A stretch of 39,922 nt of DNA from NCBI GenBank assembly GCA_913046815.1, contig CAJWTE010000002.1, positions 1-39,922 of the forward strand, read 5' to 3'. Shown here one piece after another: positions 4,078 through 28,983 of this stretch (position 1 is its first letter; each line of letters starts with the position of its first letter). This DNA comes from an uncultured bacterium. GTDB lineage: Bacteria > Patescibacteriota > Minisyncoccia > Phycocordibacterales > UBA918. A model generated the notes under the pieces. It did no database searches and was not told the origin of the DNA. It saw nothing but the letters and a program-made list of their open reading frames with translations. The translations under genes and the position numbers were made by a program.

Positions 4078-4689
4078 ATGACTAAGTTAGACAAACTAAT
4101 AAAGCACTTTGAATGTTTTCCAGGTATAGGCGGACGACAAGCACGTCGGTTTGCTTTTCATATTCTCACCTTACAACAAGCCGAGGCAAGTGAACTGGCA
4201 GATCTAATAACCAACCTACGGGGCGAGGTAGTTGAATGTATTGGTTGTAGGCGATTCTTTGCCAGGAATGGCTCGCAATCTACCCAATGTCGCATTTGTG
4301 ACGACTTCAATCGTGACCAGTCTAAATTACTAGTAGTTGAAAGAGACAGCGACATCGATGCTATTGAACGAGGAGGTAGTTATGACGGGCTTTATTTTGT
4401 ACTAGGGGGCACATTGCCTCTCCTCAACTCCAAGGAACAAGCCAAGTTGCGTGGTAATGGATTAAAAAGAAGAGTGGAGGAAAAGATGCTTAGCGGATTA
4501 AGTGAGGTAATACTTGGTTTTGCAGTAAATCCAGATGGTGAGAATACTGCACGTTATGTTGAGACTTTGTTGCAAGACTGGCCAAAAAAGCTAACGGTGA
4601 CTCATTTGGGGCGAGGCCTTTCTACTGGATCAGAGCTCGAATATGCTGATCCAGATACCATCAAGAATGCTTTGGAGAATAGAAGTTAG
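4078..4689 (+). CDS. recR: recombination protein RecR
   Basis: 203 aa. FPGIGGRQARRFAFHIL helix-hairpin-helix, a C4 zinc finger (CIGC...CRIC) and a Toprim segment LLVVERDSD. Starts 3 nt after dnaB. Confidence 0.95.
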   Translation: MTKLDKLIKHFECFPGIGGRQARRFAFHILTLQQAEASELADLITNLRGEVVECIGCRRFFARNGSQSTQCRICDDFNRDQSKLLVVERDSDIDAIERGGSYDGLYFVLGGTLPLLNSKEQAKLRGNGLKRRVEEKMLSGLSEVILGFAVNPDGENTARYVETLLQDWPKKLTVTHLGRGLSTGSELEYADPDTIKNALENRS

Positions 4690-20242: not shown

Positions 20243-20356
20243 TTTGCCTCCTCCTAATTGTACTCATTCGGAATTACTCTACAATCTTACTCAAACATGG
20301 TCAATATCTTTGTCTTTCTGGTATTATTTGCTAGTATTTGCGCACAATGAGTGTTG

Positions 20357-20427
20357 GCCCTATCGTCTAACGGCTAGGACACATGGTTCTCATCCATGAA
20401 ACCGGGGTTCGATTCCCCGTAGGGTCA
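20357..20427 (+). tRNA. tRNA-Glu (anticodon CUC)
   Basis: Manual cloverleaf. Acceptor GGCCCTA/TAGGGTC (one G-U pair), D arm GTCT..GGAC, anticodon stem CATGG/CCATG with loop TTCTCAT, T arm CGGGG-TTCGATT-CCCCG, discriminator A. The variable loop is short (AAC). No encoded CCA; CAA follows. Confidence 0.8.
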
Positions 20428-21944
20428 CAAAACGAGACTTCGTCTCGACTGAGCGAGCGCGTCGAAGACGCGCGAGATGAGGCAAGAGGAAAACGGGCTT
20501 TGCCCTGCAACACAAAACCAAAGGGTGACGAGACGGAGAAGCGCGCGGTTTTGTCACGAACCGAAGGGTTCGTTCCGACTTTTTTGACGAAAGCGGCGAT
20601 TTCGGAGAAATCATCGCTGGAGGATAAAAAGGTGGCTTGTTTCGTATCTAAAATCCACTCACGCAGGGGTTCGACCCAATTATTTCCTTGGTGGGCAAAA
20701 TCTTTCTTTTTCTCCTTTAAAGTCAGGGTGGCACGCATGATTTCGTCTTTCTTTTTAAGGTACAAGTCTTTCGGTATATCGCCATCCAAATAACTCTCCA
20801 CCAGTTTGTCCATGCGTGCTTCACTGGCTTTGATACTATCTGAAAGATTTTGTACACCACTTTGCGATGCGGTATTTTCTGCTTTCTCCCATTCCTCCAC
20901 TTTACCGAGCATGTATGCGGTATACGCATCGCAAAGCGAAATTGTTTGAAGCTGTGTCTTTAGTTGGTCGGCGAGAACGTCCTCGCGCACATATCCTTGG
21001 GAGCATGACCCTTTCTTTTTCGTACACCGATAGTACCTATATCTTCCCCCATGCCTTCCAGTTGCCCACTGAGCGGTAATCATAGAGTCACACTCTCCGC
21101 AACGAAAAAGATTGGTGAACGGAAAGTTATGACCAAGCCTTGTTTTTCTCGGCCGAGCGTTAGCCGACAAAACAACTTGTACGGCTTCAAACAATTTCGG
21201 GGAAAGTATTGGTGCAAAGCTTCCGTCAAACCATTCGTCTTTATGTTTGGTAAATCCGAGATAGGCTCGATTAGTTAGGATTCGTTTAACGGAAGCTTTG
21301 CCAAGTGGCGTACCTGCCTTTGTAGTGAGTCCAAGATCAAATAGAAAATGTGAAAGCGAGACAAGTCCATGCGTACCCTTTGCATACTCCTCATAAGCGC
21401 GCACAATAATCTGGCTATGCACTGGATGTGGCTCTATCACTTTCTTTGCCTTATTATTTACATAGCCAAAAGGAGCGCGCGTCAGCCACTCACCACGGCG
21501 TAGCTTTGCCCGCATACCTCGCTTCACATTTTGGGTTAAATTGTCCGAATAATACTTAGACTGACCAAAAGCCACTTGAAGCATGAACAACCCCTGCGGA
21601 GTGGGTTCAAACCAAAATGTCGGAAAGCGCAAAGACACTATTTTCTTTTGATCTACCGCGTAGATAACCTGCCCTCCATCTATACTATTACGTGCCAGTC
21701 TATCTGGATGCCACGCTAAAACACCAAACCCTTCCAAAGAGTTAATCTGCTCCATCATTTTATTAAAAACTGGTCTCCCGGGTGTCTTTGCGCTTTTTGA
21801 CTCTTGAAACTCCGTTAGGATTTCAAGATTTTCTTTACGCGCAAACTCTCGCATTTCAAAAAGCTGTGACTCAATAGACATGACTTGCTTATCGTCATCT
21901 TCGGTACTTTTGCGAGCGTATAGAAAATATTTTGGTTTGTTCAT
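20367..21944 (-). CDS. large serine recombinase (integrase type)
   Basis: 525 aa. Resolvase-type N-terminus YARKSTEDDDKQVMSIESQ, recombinase domain, zinc ribbon CGECDSMITAQ...YYRC, then a coiled-coil-like region. The last ~63 codons are encoded by antisense R1a and antisense tRNA-Glu, so the true C-terminus is uncertain. Confidence 0.9.
   Translation of the reverse strand: MNKPKYFLYARKSTEDDDKQVMSIESQLFEMREFARKENLEILTEFQESKSAKTPGRPVFNKMMEQINSLEGFGVLAWHPDRLARNSIDGGQVIYAVDQKKIVSLRFPTFWFEPTPQGLFMLQVAFGQSKYYSDNLTQNVKRGMRAKLRRGEWLTRAPFGYVNNKAKKVIEPHPVHSQIIVRAYEEYAKGTHGLVSLSHFLFDLGLTTKAGTPLGKASVKRILTNRAYLGFTKHKDEWFDGSFAPILSPKLFEAVQVVLSANARPRKTRLGHNFPFTNLFRCGECDSMITAQWATGRHGGRYRYYRCTKKKGSCSQGYVREDVLADQLKTQLQTISLCDAYTAYMLGKVEEWEKAENTASQSGVQNLSDSIKASEARMDKLVESYLDGDIPKDLYLKKKDEIMRATLTLKEKKKDFAHQGNNWVEPLREWILDTKQATFLSSSDDFSEIAAFVKKVGTNPSVRDKTARFSVSSPFGFVLQGKARFPLASSRASSTRSLSRDEVSFCDPTGNRTPVSWMRTMCPSR
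20412..20428. repeat. attL core (direct repeat copy 1, inside tRNA-Glu T arm/acceptor)
   Basis: ATTCCCCGTAGGGTCAC, identical to 27830-27846. Confidence 0.8.
20425..20553 (+). repeat. repeat R1a (129 bp, hairpin-rich), directly after tRNA-Glu
   Basis: Aligns without gaps to the reverse complement of 21985-22113, with 12 mismatches by manual alignment. Contains hairpins GAGAC-TTC-GTCTC, GCGCGTC-GAA-GACGCGC, GGGC-TTT-GCCC and CAAAACC...GGTTTTG. Confidence 0.9.
20553..20586 (+). terminator. intrinsic terminator-like hairpin plus T6 following R1a (antisense to the recombinase ORF)
   Basis: GTC-ACGAACC-GAAG-GGTTCGT-TCC-GAC, followed by TTTTTT (20580-20585). Confidence 0.5.
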
Positions 21945-21984
21945 AATTTTGGAAAAATTATATTTTTAGACATGAAACAAGAGG

Positions 21985-22183
21985 CAAAACCGCGCACTTT
22001 TCCGTCCCGTCACCCTTTGGTTTTGTGTTGCAGAGCAAAGCCCGTTTTCCTCTTGCTTCATCTCGCGCGCCTTCGGCGCGCTCGTTATCTAGAGACGAAG
22101 TCTCGTTTTGTGAAGAAATACTAACCCGCGCTCGAACTTACTTTGAACAGAACTAGCAACGCGCGGAGCGCGTGGTAGCTTTG
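21985..22183 (-). repeat. repeat R1b (21985-22113) plus X module (to 22183), forming the upstream/leader region of the recombinase gene
   Basis: R1b is the inverted copy of R1a. 22092-22183 is the inverted copy of 27395-27486, with 6 mismatches in 92 bp by manual alignment. Confidence 0.9.
22118..22147 (-). promoter_or_regulatory. promoter-like element inside X, pointing into R1b and the recombinase gene
   Basis: On the minus strand: TTCAAA (22147-22142), 18-nt spacer, TAGTAT (22123-22118). The same arrangement is conserved in the X copy at 27431-27460. Confidence 0.4.
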
Positions 22184-22263
22184 TACTTGAACGTACGCAT
22201 TCGCGTGCGTGGTGACGCTAAACAAGCGCCTCGGGGCGCGTTCGTCACCTCGCGCAGCAACCT

Positions 22264-22349
22264 CCAAAAATTTCCTTACCATTTCTAAAAAGCGGAAGGG
22301 GGTGCAGGGGGAAGCCGCCAAAAAGTTGAAAGGAAATTTTGGGGTTGCT
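22264..22349. repeat. repeat R2a (86 bp), perfect inverted copy of 24757-24842
   Basis: The manual reverse complement of 22264-22349 equals 24757-24842 at all 86 positions. Contains GGAAGGGGGTGCAGGGGGAAG. Confidence 0.95.
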
Positions 22350-24559: not shown

Positions 24560-24704
24560 ACAGCACCGCAGCAGCTCGCGCGAACGAATGTGAGCGAGCT
24601 ATGCGAAGGTGCTGTAGGCGTGAGCATGTATAGCGTACCACCTGCTCTGTATACGCGACAGCGCCTCGGGTGCCACCAGTCTGGAGAAAGTGATGAACAA
24701 AGCC
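24560..24704 (+). repeat. repeat Y, copy B (about 145 bp), direct copy of 27249-27401
   Basis: About 80 percent identity by eye with one ~9-nt indel. Nested stems are conserved in both copies: CAGCACC/GGTGCTG and AGCTCGC/GCGAGCT. Followed by hairpin AGCCCCT-loop-AGGGGCT (24701-24723). Confidence 0.8.
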
Positions 24705-24756
24705 CCTACTTCTTAAAGGGGCTTTGTGAAGAACTTTTGGAAGACTGGGAGGCAAA

Positions 24757-24842
24757 AGCAACCCCAAAATTTCCTTTCAACTTTTTGGCGGCTTCCCCCT
24801 GCACCCCCTTCCGCTTTTTAGAAATGGTAAGGAAATTTTTGG
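24757..24842. repeat. repeat R2b (86 bp), perfect inverted copy of 22264-22349
   Basis: See R2a. Confidence 0.95.
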
Positions 24843-24845
24843 GTA

Positions 24846-24927
24846 TTGCGAGTTTGCCGACCCCACTTATTATAATATATCACACTATATCAATGTAACA
24901 CATGAATGGTTAGAATGTTGATATAGT
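24846..24927 (+). promoter_or_regulatory. putative promoter and operator of the XRE gene
   Basis: TTGCGA (24846-24851) with TATTAT at 16 nt or TATAAT (24871-24876) at 19 nt. 10-bp inverted repeat ACTATATCAA (24884-24893) / TTGATATAGT (24918-24927) ends at the ATG. Confidence 0.4.
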
Positions 24928-25137
24928 ATGAATAGCAAGGCAGTTAAACAGTTCGCTTCGAACATGAAGCAAGTGCGTGAAGCGAAGAAAATGTCGCAAG
25001 GTGACATTTTCAGAGTGACAGGTATCGAAAGAGCGTATATCAGTAACCTCGAAGCTGGCAAACAAAATCCAACGTTAGAAACGATCGAAAAGATAGCACA
25101 AGCGTTGGGTGTTGAAGTTAGTGAATTAACAAAGTAA
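24928..25137 (+). CDS. XRE-family (Cro/CI-type) HTH transcriptional regulator
   Basis: 69 aa. MSQGDIFRVTGIERAYISNLEAGKQNPTLETIEKIAQALGV is a textbook HTH_3 pattern. Confidence 0.88.
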   Translation: MNSKAVKQFASNMKQVREAKKMSQGDIFRVTGIERAYISNLEAGKQNPTLETIEKIAQALGVEVSELTK

Positions 25138-27248: not shown

Positions 27249-27512
27249 ACAGCACCGTAGCAGCTCGCGCGAACGGGCGTTAGCTCGTGAGCGAGCTGTG
27301 CGGAGGTGCTGGAGGTGAGAGCGTGTTTAGCATTACCACGCGGTTGGTCTACACGTAGCGCCTCGGGCGCCAACAGACTGGAGAAAAGTCTGAACAAAGC
27401 CACCACGCGCTCGGCGCGTTGCTAGTTCTGTTCAAAATAAGTTCGAGTAAGGGTTAGTATTTCTTCACAAAACGAGACTTCGTCTCTATTGAGCGGGCGC
27501 GCCGAGCGCGCT
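27249..27512 (+). repeat. composite repeat Y-X-R1c (copy C)
   Basis: Y 27249-27401 is a direct copy of 24560-24704. X 27395-27486 is an inverted copy of 22092-22183. From 27465 a partial R1 copy follows (hairpin GAGAC-TTC-GTCTC, then GCGCGC-CGA-GCGCGC). The promoter-like TTCAAA-18-TAGTAT lies at 27431-27460. Confidence 0.85.
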
Positions 27513-27563
27513 GCAATCATTGTCTTTTCTCAAAGTGGGTTCGAGCGAGGGTAAGTATTTCTT

Positions 27564-27611
27564 CACGAGTACAGAAAACAGCACCTGTCAAAGGTGCGTT
27601 TTCTGTTCGTG
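27564..27611 (+). other. long hairpin preceded by a second X-like box
   Basis: CACGA-GT-ACAGAAAAC-A-GCACC-TGTCAAA-GGTGC-GTTTTCTGT-TCGTG. Preceded by GGGTTCGAGCGAGGGTAAGTATTTCTTCAC (27537-27566), a degenerate copy of the X 3' end. Confidence 0.55.
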
Positions 27612-27811: not shown

Positions 27812-28927
27812 TTAGTGACCGTCAGGATCATTCCCCGTAGGGTCACCAGCCCAAAAAAGATGGGTTCGTAGCGACTGCTCACTCTCGAACCTTTCTATCG
27901 CCAGTTTTATAAGCCGATCAATTAACTCAGTGTAGGGGATGCCACTATGTTCCCACAACTGTGGATACATGCTTACTTTTGTAAAGCCGGGAATAGTATT
28001 GATTTCTATCACCTTTAACTCTCCATCTGGCTGAAGGAAAAAGTCCACCCGACCTAGGCCAGAGCACTCCAGAAGTTTAAAAACCCTCACAGCTAATCCT
28101 TGCACTTCCTCCACCTTTTCCGCGTCCAATTCGGCTGGGATTTTTAGAGCTGCTCCATTTTCATCTATATACTTGGCTTCATAAGAGTAAAAGTCATGAG
28201 CCGGCACAATTTCTCCAGGAATGGACGCTACTGGATCCCTGTTTCCCAGCACAGCACACTCTATCTCTCTGCCTTCCACTGCTTCTTCCACGATGATTTT
28301 CGTATCATAGGAAAAAGCCTCTTTCACAACTTCATACAATTCACTCTCATTACTGGCTTTATTGACACCTACAGAAGAGCCCATGTTTACAGGCTTCACA
28401 AATACAGGCCAACCTAACTTAGCTTCGACTTCCAAGCCATCAACATCGTCGACACTTCGGTAAACTAGAAAGTCAGCCGTGGGTATACCCGCGTCTCGTA
28501 AAAGACGCTTCATAACGTCCTTATCCATTCCAACAGCGGAACCAAGCACCCCGGCACCCACGTAAGGTACACATGCTAATTCTAACAAACCTTGTACTGT
28601 TCCGTCTTCACCCATAGGTCCGTGCAGTATAGGAAATACAACATCTACAGCTCCAGGATTGTTTGAGAGCTGTCCGTGACATGATGGTACTAATGAGATC
28701 TCCTCATTGACTTGGTTTAAAGCAATCAACTTTGGGTCGTTACTATTCAGTAGAAGCTCACTTTCATTACCCATAAGCCACTTCCCTTTCTTAGTGATAC
28801 CAATAGGTATTACTTCATACTTCTGTTTATCGATGGCGTCGATAACATTTTGTGCGGATTGTAAGGACACCTCATGCTCAGCAGATAATCCACCAAACAA
28901 GATGCCAACTCTAATTTTCTTATCCAT
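27812..28927 (-). CDS. ddl: D-alanine--D-alanine ligase
   Basis: MDKKIRVGILFGGLSAEHEVSLQSA, GEDGTVQGLLE and an ATP-grasp layout. Start 28927 is preferred over the ORF-track 28963, which lies inside a palindrome. The C-terminal tail ...WAGDPTGNDPDGH reads through attR. Confidence 0.93.
   Translation of the reverse strand: MDKKIRVGILFGGLSAEHEVSLQSAQNVIDAIDKQKYEVIPIGITKKGKWLMGNESELLLNSNDPKLIALNQVNEEISLVPSCHGQLSNNPGAVDVVFPILHGPMGEDGTVQGLLELACVPYVGAGVLGSAVGMDKDVMKRLLRDAGIPTADFLVYRSVDDVDGLEVEAKLGWPVFVKPVNMGSSVGVNKASNESELYEVVKEAFSYDTKIIVEEAVEGREIECAVLGNRDPVASIPGEIVPAHDFYSYEAKYIDENGAALKIPAELDAEKVEEVQGLAVRVFKLLECSGLGRVDFFLQPDGELKVIEINTIPGFTKVSMYPQLWEHSGIPYTELIDRLIKLAIERFESEQSLRTHLFWAGDPTGNDPDGH
27830..27846. 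repeat. attR core (direct repeat copy 2)
   Basis: ATTCCCCGTAGGGTCAC. Here GGGTCA is followed by CCA, as expected for an original tRNA 3' end with encoded CCA. Confidence 0.8.
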
Positions 28928-28945
28928 CGTATAAGAATACCAGAT

Positions 28946-28983
28946 AAATATACACGCATGCATTAATGCATGCGTGTATATTT
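28946..28983. terminator. perfect 38-bp palindrome (19-bp arms) between the FN3-like gene and ddl
   Basis: AAATATACACGCATGCATT | AATGCATGCGTGTATATTT. Likely a terminator/attenuator between the two minus-strand genes. Confidence 0.65.

Follow-up and report, generated by a model that had tools for sequence, protein, structure and literature searches.

The window, a stretch of 39,922 nucleotides (nt) from an uncultured patescibacterium (contig CAJWTE010000002.1, assembly GCA_913046815.1), contains a large serine recombinase gene that overlaps the 3' end of a convergent tRNA-Glu gene and is enclosed by two inverted copies, R1a and R1b, of a repeat, R1, of 129 base pairs (bp). The comparison of this arrangement with related loci makes it probable, to our minds, that R1a and R1b are the arms of an invertible integrase cassette on an island of 7.4 kilobases (kb) inserted at the tRNA-Glu gene. 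The features that enter into this proposal are as follows.

20356..20428, plus strand: tRNA-Glu(CTC) gene, called by ARAGORN and matching Rfam RF00005 (60.4 bits); the host target of the island.
20412..20428, plus strand: left 17-bp direct repeat ATTCCCCGTAGGGTCAC (core of the left attachment site, attL), which is the tRNA's 3' end; the exact 17-mer recurs at 27830-27846.
20425..20553, plus strand: R1a, the tRNA-side or tail arm; its minus strand encodes recombinase residues ~464-507.
20553..20586, plus strand: hairpin CGAACC-GAAG-GGTTCG followed by T6, resembling an intrinsic terminator for transcription in the tRNA sense and lying just inside the putatively invertible segment.
20367..21944, minus strand: large serine recombinase (integrase) of 525 amino acids (aa), with Pfam domains Resolvase, Recombinase and Zn_ribbon_recom.
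21945..21984, minus strand: unique leader that separates R1b from the ATG (..CCTCTTGTTTCATGTCTAAAA..) and is conserved among relatives.
21985..22113, minus strand: R1b, the promoter-side or upstream arm, which is predicted to be the recombinase mRNA's 5' leader.
22114..22147, minus strand: promoter-like box TTCAAA-N18-TAGTAT with the conserved spacer GTTCGAGCGCGG; its -10 element ends 4 nt before the arm.
27432..27511, plus strand: R1c, a second copy of the box with the first 47 nt of R1, facing outward, to the right end of the island.
27830..27846, plus strand: right 17-bp direct repeat, a tRNA 3' fragment that has been displaced and precedes CCA; here the 7.4-kb island ends on the right.

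The case for inversion comes from relatives, whose loci are designated by L numbers where they need to be told apart. A first-pass annotation of the window had listed inversion of the recombinase gene among several options, and the gene is indeed found both ways between arms at the same locus, with ~15% of C-termini being of the flipped kind. In L006, L093 and L150 the order on the recombinase strand is tRNA gene, R1, leader, ATG, with the tRNA gene upstream, and in L101, L103 and L113 the promoter-like box follows the tail arm; both are flipped arrangements. The C-termini of the top 120 homologue clusters include 68 that are antisense to a tRNA gene (..CDPTGNRT..) and 12 that are antisense to the box (..C(E/G)E(I/L)LxFARTxFE..). 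Both types occur in 5 of 10 clusters formed at 90% identity, the arm-coded tails there being identical.

Loci L167 and L170, from samples with neighbouring accession numbers, can be compared directly. They share 5972 bp of host flank at 99.95% identity, with dcw genes (MraZ, MraW, PBP, Mur ligase) and tRNA-Glu, and are 100% identical in the box-side flank, with the recombinase segment between the arms inverted. The arms (~131 bp, 3 differences) carry markers at positions 42 and 93 that stayed beside their flanks, which places the exchange in the inner portion of the arms. A chimeric assembly path is unlikely, given the length of the arms and contig names (k141_...) that point to assembly with k = 141, and both orientations recur in two sample series (sibling samples, two projects). 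Thus two features of an inverton, a segment bracketed by inverted repeats and the presence of both orientations with the same flanks, are found, the first in the window and the second in its relatives L167 and L170. Of the 26 differences between the inverted segments of L167 and L170, 18 are concentrated in recombinase nt 41-206 (L167 6042-6207), compared with 3 in the 6 kb of host flank; this mosaic patch suggests exchange with a paralogous copy.

With respect to the agent of inversion, host homologous recombination is more likely because the arms are homogenised, though the single mapped exchange is insufficient to decide, and site-specific action of the recombinase itself may be involved. 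Action of the integrase at the T-loop-like GGTTCG of the box was considered as a mechanism and rejected; flipped loci keep both tRNA and box intact, so exchange must have occurred within the arms.

In the window, which belongs to a Tara Oceans scaffold, the arms form a gap-free inverted repeat with 91% complementarity (12 mismatches in 129 bp), and the 40 kb contain no comparable repeat besides further repeats within the same island. R1a begins inside the tRNA end, 4 nt within the ARAGORN call, R1b lies between the promoter-like box and the recombinase ATG, from which it is separated by 40 nt, and the open reading frame (ORF) of the recombinase runs antisense through R1a into the tRNA gene, extending 62 codons beyond the inner end of the arm. 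The description of this layout in the first-pass annotation was thereby confirmed.

The arrangement is not peculiar to the window. The recombinase has thousands of relatives; identity is 66-84% in the top 120 clusters, where the members with names are Patescibacteria, and at least 588 Patescibacteria species genomes in GTDB carry it. An inverted repeat encloses the gene at fixed positions in 130 of ~150 testable loci (median length 134 bp, median arm identity 97.8%), with the upstream arm at about -25 to -170 from the ATG across the 130 loci, and such bracketing is retained at 42-57% protein identity. That R1 could be a generic dispersed repeat, a concern raised at the outset, is not borne out, since a BLAST-based linkage test found just 2 extra arm-like copies in 1.34 Mb of flanking DNA. 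No relative was found among IMG/VR viral contigs and a phage origin is therefore unsupported.

The 3' end of the ORF overlaps a convergent tRNA gene in ~70 of the first 80 loci, the tRNA lying at a fixed distance of ~1516-1525 nt from the ATG. The tRNA genes in these 80 loci are for Glu, Arg, Ser, Leu, Lys, Val, Gly and Ala; those of distant relatives are also for Pro, Trp, Asn, Asp, Cys and Phe, giving more than 12 kinds overall. Four loci (L020, L023, L028, L036) have recombinases that are 94-95% identical at the nucleotide level, located beside different tRNA-Ser isoacceptors (GGA, GCT, CGA). These tRNA-Ser genes share the acceptor 3' end CTCTCCGC, so it is not the anticodon-specific part of the tRNA that determines the target. 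In L130 the recombinase lies between two tRNA-Leu genes (2773-2856, 4527-4613) in inverted orientation, into which the repeat, here 203 bp long, reaches.

Comparison of the arms, within and between loci, has shown that at the sequence level they evolve in concert. Arms of the same locus are 95-98.5% identical, as against 58-87% for the tail arms of nearest-neighbour loci, and in more than half of the loci the two arms are at least 98% identical. The first 3-8 nt of the upstream arm match the 3' terminus of the tRNA beside the other arm (TCAC, GCAC, CCGC etc.), which can be attributed to conversion of the upstream arm from the tRNA-side arm.

The product of the gene has the domain set of an integrase, i.e. 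a catalytic domain (PF00239, residues 7-153, E = 3.6e-22) followed by PF07508 (residues 175-261) and PF13408 (residues 275-332). The motif YARKS(13)TEDD, which includes the serine nucleophile, is invariant among 27 homologues, and the nearest solved structure is that of the SPbeta integrase (9dxh, E = 6e-11, aligned over residues 8-403). The homologue alignment is conserved to ..FVKKVGTNPxVRDKSARF, which is followed by a variable stretch and then by ..EVSFCDPTGNRT; this last part is the antisense of the start of R1 plus the tRNA. In the arm-coded codons 466-504, stops interrupt the recombinase frame in 1 of 77 loci, compared with 27 and 32 of 77 for the other two frames. Translation through the arm is therefore selected, and the ORF is under selection to stay open there. 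A third type of C terminus, ..CDPTG|WLSEL.., was observed in L168 (7550-7610) and in proteins P0205, P0191 and P0182. The ORF in these cases runs out of the tail arm, across a 12-15-nt tRNA 3' remnant and into other genes of the island (ResIII helicase, N6 methylase, HTH_17); such loci represent either tandem island arrays or attP-like junctions.

Upstream of the gene, the box elements on the minus strand are TTCAAA (22142-22147) and TAGTAT (22118-22123), with a spacer of 18 nt. Its conservation, previously proposed from the window, extends to relatives, with a GGTTCG(C/A)GCAAAGG core in 64 of 90 loci; the pattern in these is TTC(A/G)AA, a core-bearing spacer and TAnnAT. A TAnnAT-like hexamer follows the core in 46 of the 64; in 28 of the 46, its end is separated from the repeat boundary by 4 nt. 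Given the same interval of 4 nt between -10 element and repeat in the window, the transcript would be expected to begin within roughly the first bases of R1. A CTTGTTTCGTATCTAAAA-like sequence comes after the upstream arm in most loci, whichever the orientation.

Downstream of R1a, the hairpin and T6 at 20553-20586 are present on the plus strand as the first-pass annotation had stated, and a simple terminator scan did not list them. As a general feature the terminator-like hairpin stood only in part, recurring in about half of the loci: a canonical hairpin with a T-run occurs in 47 of 106 relatives, and 13 more have the hairpin without the T-run. On the minus strand the region encodes the conserved FVKKVGTNPSVRD. 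The hairpin displays no covariation in a 24-locus alignment, and the same sequence encodes the conserved VGTNPxVR; its conservation may thus be owed to coding.

The recombinase gene forms one end of a larger unit. Because the 17-nt tRNA end recurs at 27830-27846 (we estimate the chance expectation of such a 17-mer match at ~5e-6 in 40 kb), the recombinase can be assigned to an integrated island of 7.4 kb, at its tRNA-proximal end. An intact tRNA gene and a displaced 3' fragment (17/17 nt), with an integrase between them that adjoins the tRNA, are the hallmarks of tRNA-integrated islands and are all present here. The last 17 nt of tRNA-Glu are probably supplied by the island, and a promoter-like TGGTCA-18-TATTAT lies upstream of the tRNA gene at 20298-20327. 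The right copy of the repeat is within the 3' end of ddl; this ORF (27812..28963, minus strand) terminates within the displaced tRNA fragment at the island end (27812-27850), so its last ~12 codons depend on the insertion. Equivalent direct repeats of 15-19 bp, 4.8-7.7 kb away, are present in L040, L053 and L054, so that with the window a tRNA-fragment repeat has been found in only 4 loci. The end repeats of 17 bp, and a dyad GTGACC..GGTCAC at 27817-27846, suggest that the window integrase may recombine attP with attB, at short sites (~40-50 bp) with a central dinucleotide as is typical of large serine integrases, the predicted attP being GTGACCGTCAGGATCA|TTCCCCGTAGGGTCAC followed by R1.

If the arms do bound an invertible cassette, the arm sequence would serve as a 5' leader on one side and, read antisense, as the last ~40 codons on the other. 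With leader and coding tail both supplied by the repeat, the gene would remain intact in either orientation after recombination between the arms. In the window orientation, which is the common one, the island box would read through R1b into the integrase, while a transcript from the host tRNA-Glu gene would enter R1a and meet the hairpin and T6, convergently with the integrase. In the flipped orientation the same leader would link the tRNA gene to the integrase, R1 and the terminator-like hairpin would cap the box promoter, and the last 10-20 residues of the protein would change. Repeated arm-to-arm exchange would keep the arms nearly identical. The cassette proposal thus would explain the open frame through the arm, the start of the arms at a tRNA end and at a transcription start, the terminator-like element inside the segment and the homogenisation of the arms.

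The transcription pattern outlined for the two orientations is deduced from the positions of promoter-like and terminator-like sequences, and it may be that flipping regulates the supply of integrase and thus excision or integration. A further step, a programmed two-state switch in which the integrase is handed from the island promoter to the tRNA promoter while the other promoter yields a short antisense R1 RNA, is proposed only tentatively. Were it correct, orientation would decide whether the island stays or excises and spreads, i.e. mobility would be under bistable control by a repeat combining the roles of leader, coding tail and recombination substrate.

Several observations weigh against a cassette that inverts as a matter of function. 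The flipped state, a minority (about 5-15%), might represent a mishap that is tolerated and not a switch. No orientation variant was seen in further assemblies of the window's element (L161 matches the window where compared; L162 has 2 differing positions and breaks inside the repeat), and the window's arms, at 91%, are less recombinogenic. The inner third of the arms is much more divergent than the outer two-thirds, having 330 of 463 differences; this third is where the tail arm codes for the conserved DKSARF.. and where its counterpart nears the start codon. Promoter and terminator are predictions from consensus, and the T-run hairpin is found in about half of the loci, where it overlaps a conserved peptide. 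Finally, inversion alone gives no explanation for the covarying hairpins within the arms.

These hairpins are conserved. The first-pass annotation had described four in R1, of which the GC hairpin, GAGAC-TTC-GTCTC and GGGC-TTT-GCCC are convincing in the window and the remainder is not. The GC hairpin does differ between the arms by a double change that leaves the pairing intact (GCGCGTC-GAA-GACGCGC versus GCGCGCC-GAA-GGCGCGC), GCGCGC-CGA-GCGCGC is indeed the version in the third, partial copy (27465-27511), and in another stem a G.T pair is preserved (GGGCTTTGCCC versus GGGCTTTGCTC). Single copies of R1 are only modestly more stable than shuffled sequences (z = -1.1 and -2.0).

Among relatives, structure was assessed by an alignment-free hairpin census and with a gap-free alignment of 24 loci having a hand-set structure. 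A perfect hairpin of at least 7 bp is present in 79 of 104 arms, compared with 3.9 expected from shuffles; these comprise 49 distinct stem sequences at a constant position, with loops that are mostly GAA or GCA. In the 24-locus alignment 7 of the 8 pairs of the GC hairpin (hairpin B) change on both sides, with 92% of cells paired; for the whole R1 structure 82% of cells are paired, versus 29-40% with slid partners, and the covariation score is above all 500 shuffles. Covariation thus demonstrates conservation of the hairpins. When RNAalifold was run on a plain MAFFT alignment (35 loci), what it recovered was confined to the T-arm of the tRNA and the terminator-like hairpin; the middle of R1 was missed because subtypes were misaligned there.

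The first-pass annotation proposed selection on a folded RNA. The stems do covary, but the expected strand signature is lacking. The mean folding z over 73 loci (-1.8) is equal for both strands, there is no excess of G.U over A.C (1 versus 1 in hairpin B, 5 versus 7 in hairpin C), and the good stems are almost purely Watson-Crick. The minimum free energy was tried as a guide to the strand and discarded, since the greater stability of the tRNA-sense strand in 66 of 73 loci, with equal z-scores, is an effect of composition. C-GAA-G and C-GCA-G triloops predominate, and they are on opposite strands in hairpins B and C. Such triloops are typical of stable DNA mini-hairpins, not of RNA tetraloops, and template switching at the DNA level can also keep palindromes perfect. 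Rfam, at gathering and permissive thresholds, gave the tRNA as the only match. The hairpins may act as RNA or as DNA, the good stems being compatible with both and with either strand.

The hairpins bear most directly on the possibility that control at the RNA level is primary, with inversion a by-product of the repeat, which we consider unlikely, albeit the best placed of the alternatives. R1 RNA would then be both leader of the integrase mRNA and trailer of the tRNA, terminating at the hairpin and T6; the trailer would be antisense to the integrase 3' coding end, a duplex of ~130 bp could form between leader and 3' end, and the host tRNA promoter would damp or gate the integrase after integration, e.g. 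via RNase III cleavage or leader-trailer competition. The repeat boundary coincides with the tRNA 3' end on one side and lies 4 nt after the -10 element on the other, so R1 would start at about +1 in both transcripts, and a hairpin with a T-run follows the tRNA-side arm in the window as well as in the 47 relatives. Consistent with an RNA role are the covariation (7 of 8 GC-hairpin pairs; the 49 stems), the mean z of -1.8 over the 73 loci, and the better homogenisation of the outer two-thirds of the arms, which is expected if leader-tail complementarity matters. By contrast, G.U pairs are no more frequent than A.C, z is equal on both strands, the triloops of hairpins B and C are of the DNA mini-hairpin type and on opposite strands, and no Rfam family other than tRNA is matched. 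Moreover, arms with at least 98% identity in over half of the loci exceed the needs of a duplex and point to exchange at the DNA level. The RNA reading is compatible with an invertible cassette, for which it may provide the reason that the hairpins are conserved.

It is improbable, in our assessment, that the repeat has no function, being an old inverted duplication of the integrase end near the attachment site that is kept alike by gene conversion, with inversions as neutral accidents. Concerted evolution needs recombination alone, the flipped state is in the minority, and quasi-palindrome correction could yield 'compensatory' changes without selection. However, the position of the repeat is unchanged over protein identities from 100% down to 42% and at many tRNA targets, conservation extends to its outer boundary, the box, the leader and the open frame, and a useless repeat of 130 bp would be expected to be lost from such small genomes.

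There is very little to commend the view that the arms are the terminal inverted repeats of a serine-recombinase transposon of ~1.7 kb residing beside tRNA genes, the rest of the island being unrelated. A recombinase bracketed by inverted repeats does resemble an insertion sequence, the 94-95% identical recombinases are beside different tRNA-Ser genes, the tRNA-fragment repeat is confined to 4 loci, and L163 has mostly housekeeping-type genes 0.6-6 kb upstream. Against this, the conserved box, the upstream modules and an XRE gene are outside the repeat yet travel with it, the displaced tRNA fragment is 4.8-7.7 kb away in the window, L040, L053 and L054, there is no target-site duplication beside the arms, and the ORF leaves the arm into the tRNA. 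In its minimal form the transposon reading was rejected, with island ends 7.4 kb apart, element sequence outside the arms and no duplication at the arms.

Equally hard to credit is that R1 RNA is a cofactor or guide of the recombinase, by analogy with the bridge RNA of IS110 or the omega RNA of TnpB: R1 is a structured, recombinase-linked non-coding sequence at an element end, its upstream arm carries the last 3-8 nt of the targeted tRNA, and near-identical proteins are found at different tRNAs, but the protein has the full DNA-recognition set of large serine recombinases (which needs no RNA in characterised members), the tRNA-matching nt are explained by conversion from the tRNA-side arm, no target-complementary loop was seen, and the stems have no strand bias.

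Some further observations concern the surroundings of the cassette. Additional promoter-like boxes near the attR end face outward (window 27432-27468 and 27530-27566; L040 ~6986; L054 ~4582); in an excised circle they would read over attP into the tail arm. The island cargo includes a SocA/Panacea antitoxin-like gene, a nucleotidyltransferase and a Bro-N protein. A second inverted-repeat pair (22257-22349 / 24757-24849; 93 nt, 97% complementary) encloses 2.4 kb with three genes, a 306-aa ORF, the SocA/Panacea gene and an ORF of ~131 aa, and just beyond it is an XRE-type helix-turn-helix gene (24928-25137). In L164 and L166 a small XRE regulator is directly upstream of the recombinase, on the opposite strand, which suggests that the 2.4-kb segment is an insertion or another flippable cassette. 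Intergenic modules rich in GC hairpins, e.g. ACCACGCGCTCCGCGCGT, are repeated within the island (24560-24709 / 27249-27406; 22147-22184 / 27394-27431), the second of these being kept upstream of the box in many other loci. The cargo of related islands is defence-like, with DpnII-type restriction-modification in L164 (4514-9500) and a reverse transcriptase plus DNA methylase in L166 (5147-9567).

The repeat also affects how these loci are recorded. It breaks short-read assemblies, many recombinase contigs being just 1.6-2.0 kb, i.e. arm to arm; many public contigs end at or inside the upstream arm (L002, L012, L015, L017, L021, L037, L063, L071, L162). Gene callers give the integrases C-termini that look artificial, and together with contigs ending in arms this means that annotation pipelines mis-describe the locus.

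Taken with its breadth, the arrangement has implications beyond the window. It defines a large, conserved clade of serine integrases located at a dozen or more kinds of tRNA gene, and the 94-95% identical proteins at different tRNA-Ser genes bear on target choice by large serine recombinases (LSRs), which are tools for genome engineering. The design of the gene is unusual in that a single repeat of ~130 bp is 5' leader and, in antisense, 3' coding sequence. The cassette proposal further offers a testable model for how mobility is controlled in small defence and toxin-antitoxin islands of the mostly unculturable Patescibacteria.

One of the closest parallels is the Hin H segment of Salmonella (and Gin/Cin/Pin), where, as here, a serine-recombinase gene is within a segment bounded by inverted repeats, with two orientations that set the junctions between promoter and gene. 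By contrast, Hin is a small invertase (~190 aa) acting at 26-bp hix sites with a Fis-bound enhancer, and its promoter is inside the segment with the controlled gene outside. Here the protein is of the integrase type and the repeats, of ~130 bp, evolve in concert and overlap the coding end and leader of the gene; the promoters (box and tRNA gene) are outside the segment and the controlled gene would be that of the recombinase itself. At 525 aa and with repeats of this length, the system does not have the small invertase, C-terminal helix-turn-helix and ~26-bp sites of the Hin/Gin type.

Among elements with long repeats, the yeast 2-micron plasmid with its FLP recombinase and the plastid flip-flop likewise have long inverted repeats around a unique segment, two isomers and repeats that are kept identical, and in the 2-micron plasmid the recombinase gene is also within the unique segment. 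FLP is, however, a tyrosine recombinase acting at an FRT site in 599-bp repeats, with flipping used for copy-number amplification, whereas the present repeats have no defined site, are on a chromosomal island and are part of the gene.

As regards integrating elements, those with LSRs (phiC31, Bxb1, SPbeta SprA, and the LSR tycheposons of Prochlorococcus) have the same domains and an integrase that adjoins the attachment site, but here a whole clade targets tRNA genes. According to the Islander paper serine integrases are not known to target tRNA genes, a minority of tycheposons being the exception in that some LSR tycheposons occupy tRNA sites. Islands of the Islander type share with the window a regenerated tRNA, a displaced 3' fragment (17 bp here), a tRNA-proximal integrase and defence or toxin-antitoxin cargo; they use tyrosine integrases, however, while here the integrase is of the serine family, its ORF crosses the junction and a repeat flanks it. 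In the integration-dependent immunity of cluster G mycobacteriophages an ORF similarly crosses the attachment junction, its C terminus being set by the DNA beyond (here tRNA, box or other island DNA). In those phages the repressor is affected and a degradation tag is lost; here no tag was identified and the change comes with inversion as well as with integration.

At the RNA level, the predicted short convergent RNA, fully complementary to the recombinase mRNA, is reminiscent of RNA-OUT/RNA-IN of IS10, except that it would pair with the 3' coding end rather than the translation start and would be driven by a host tRNA gene. In the literature we found no description of an LSR gene within long inverted repeats or read via attL into a tRNA, nor of an integrase gene designed to function whichever way round it lies. 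The arrangement, as judged from sequence comparison, is a widespread and conserved variant of both invertible segments and serine-integrase islands.

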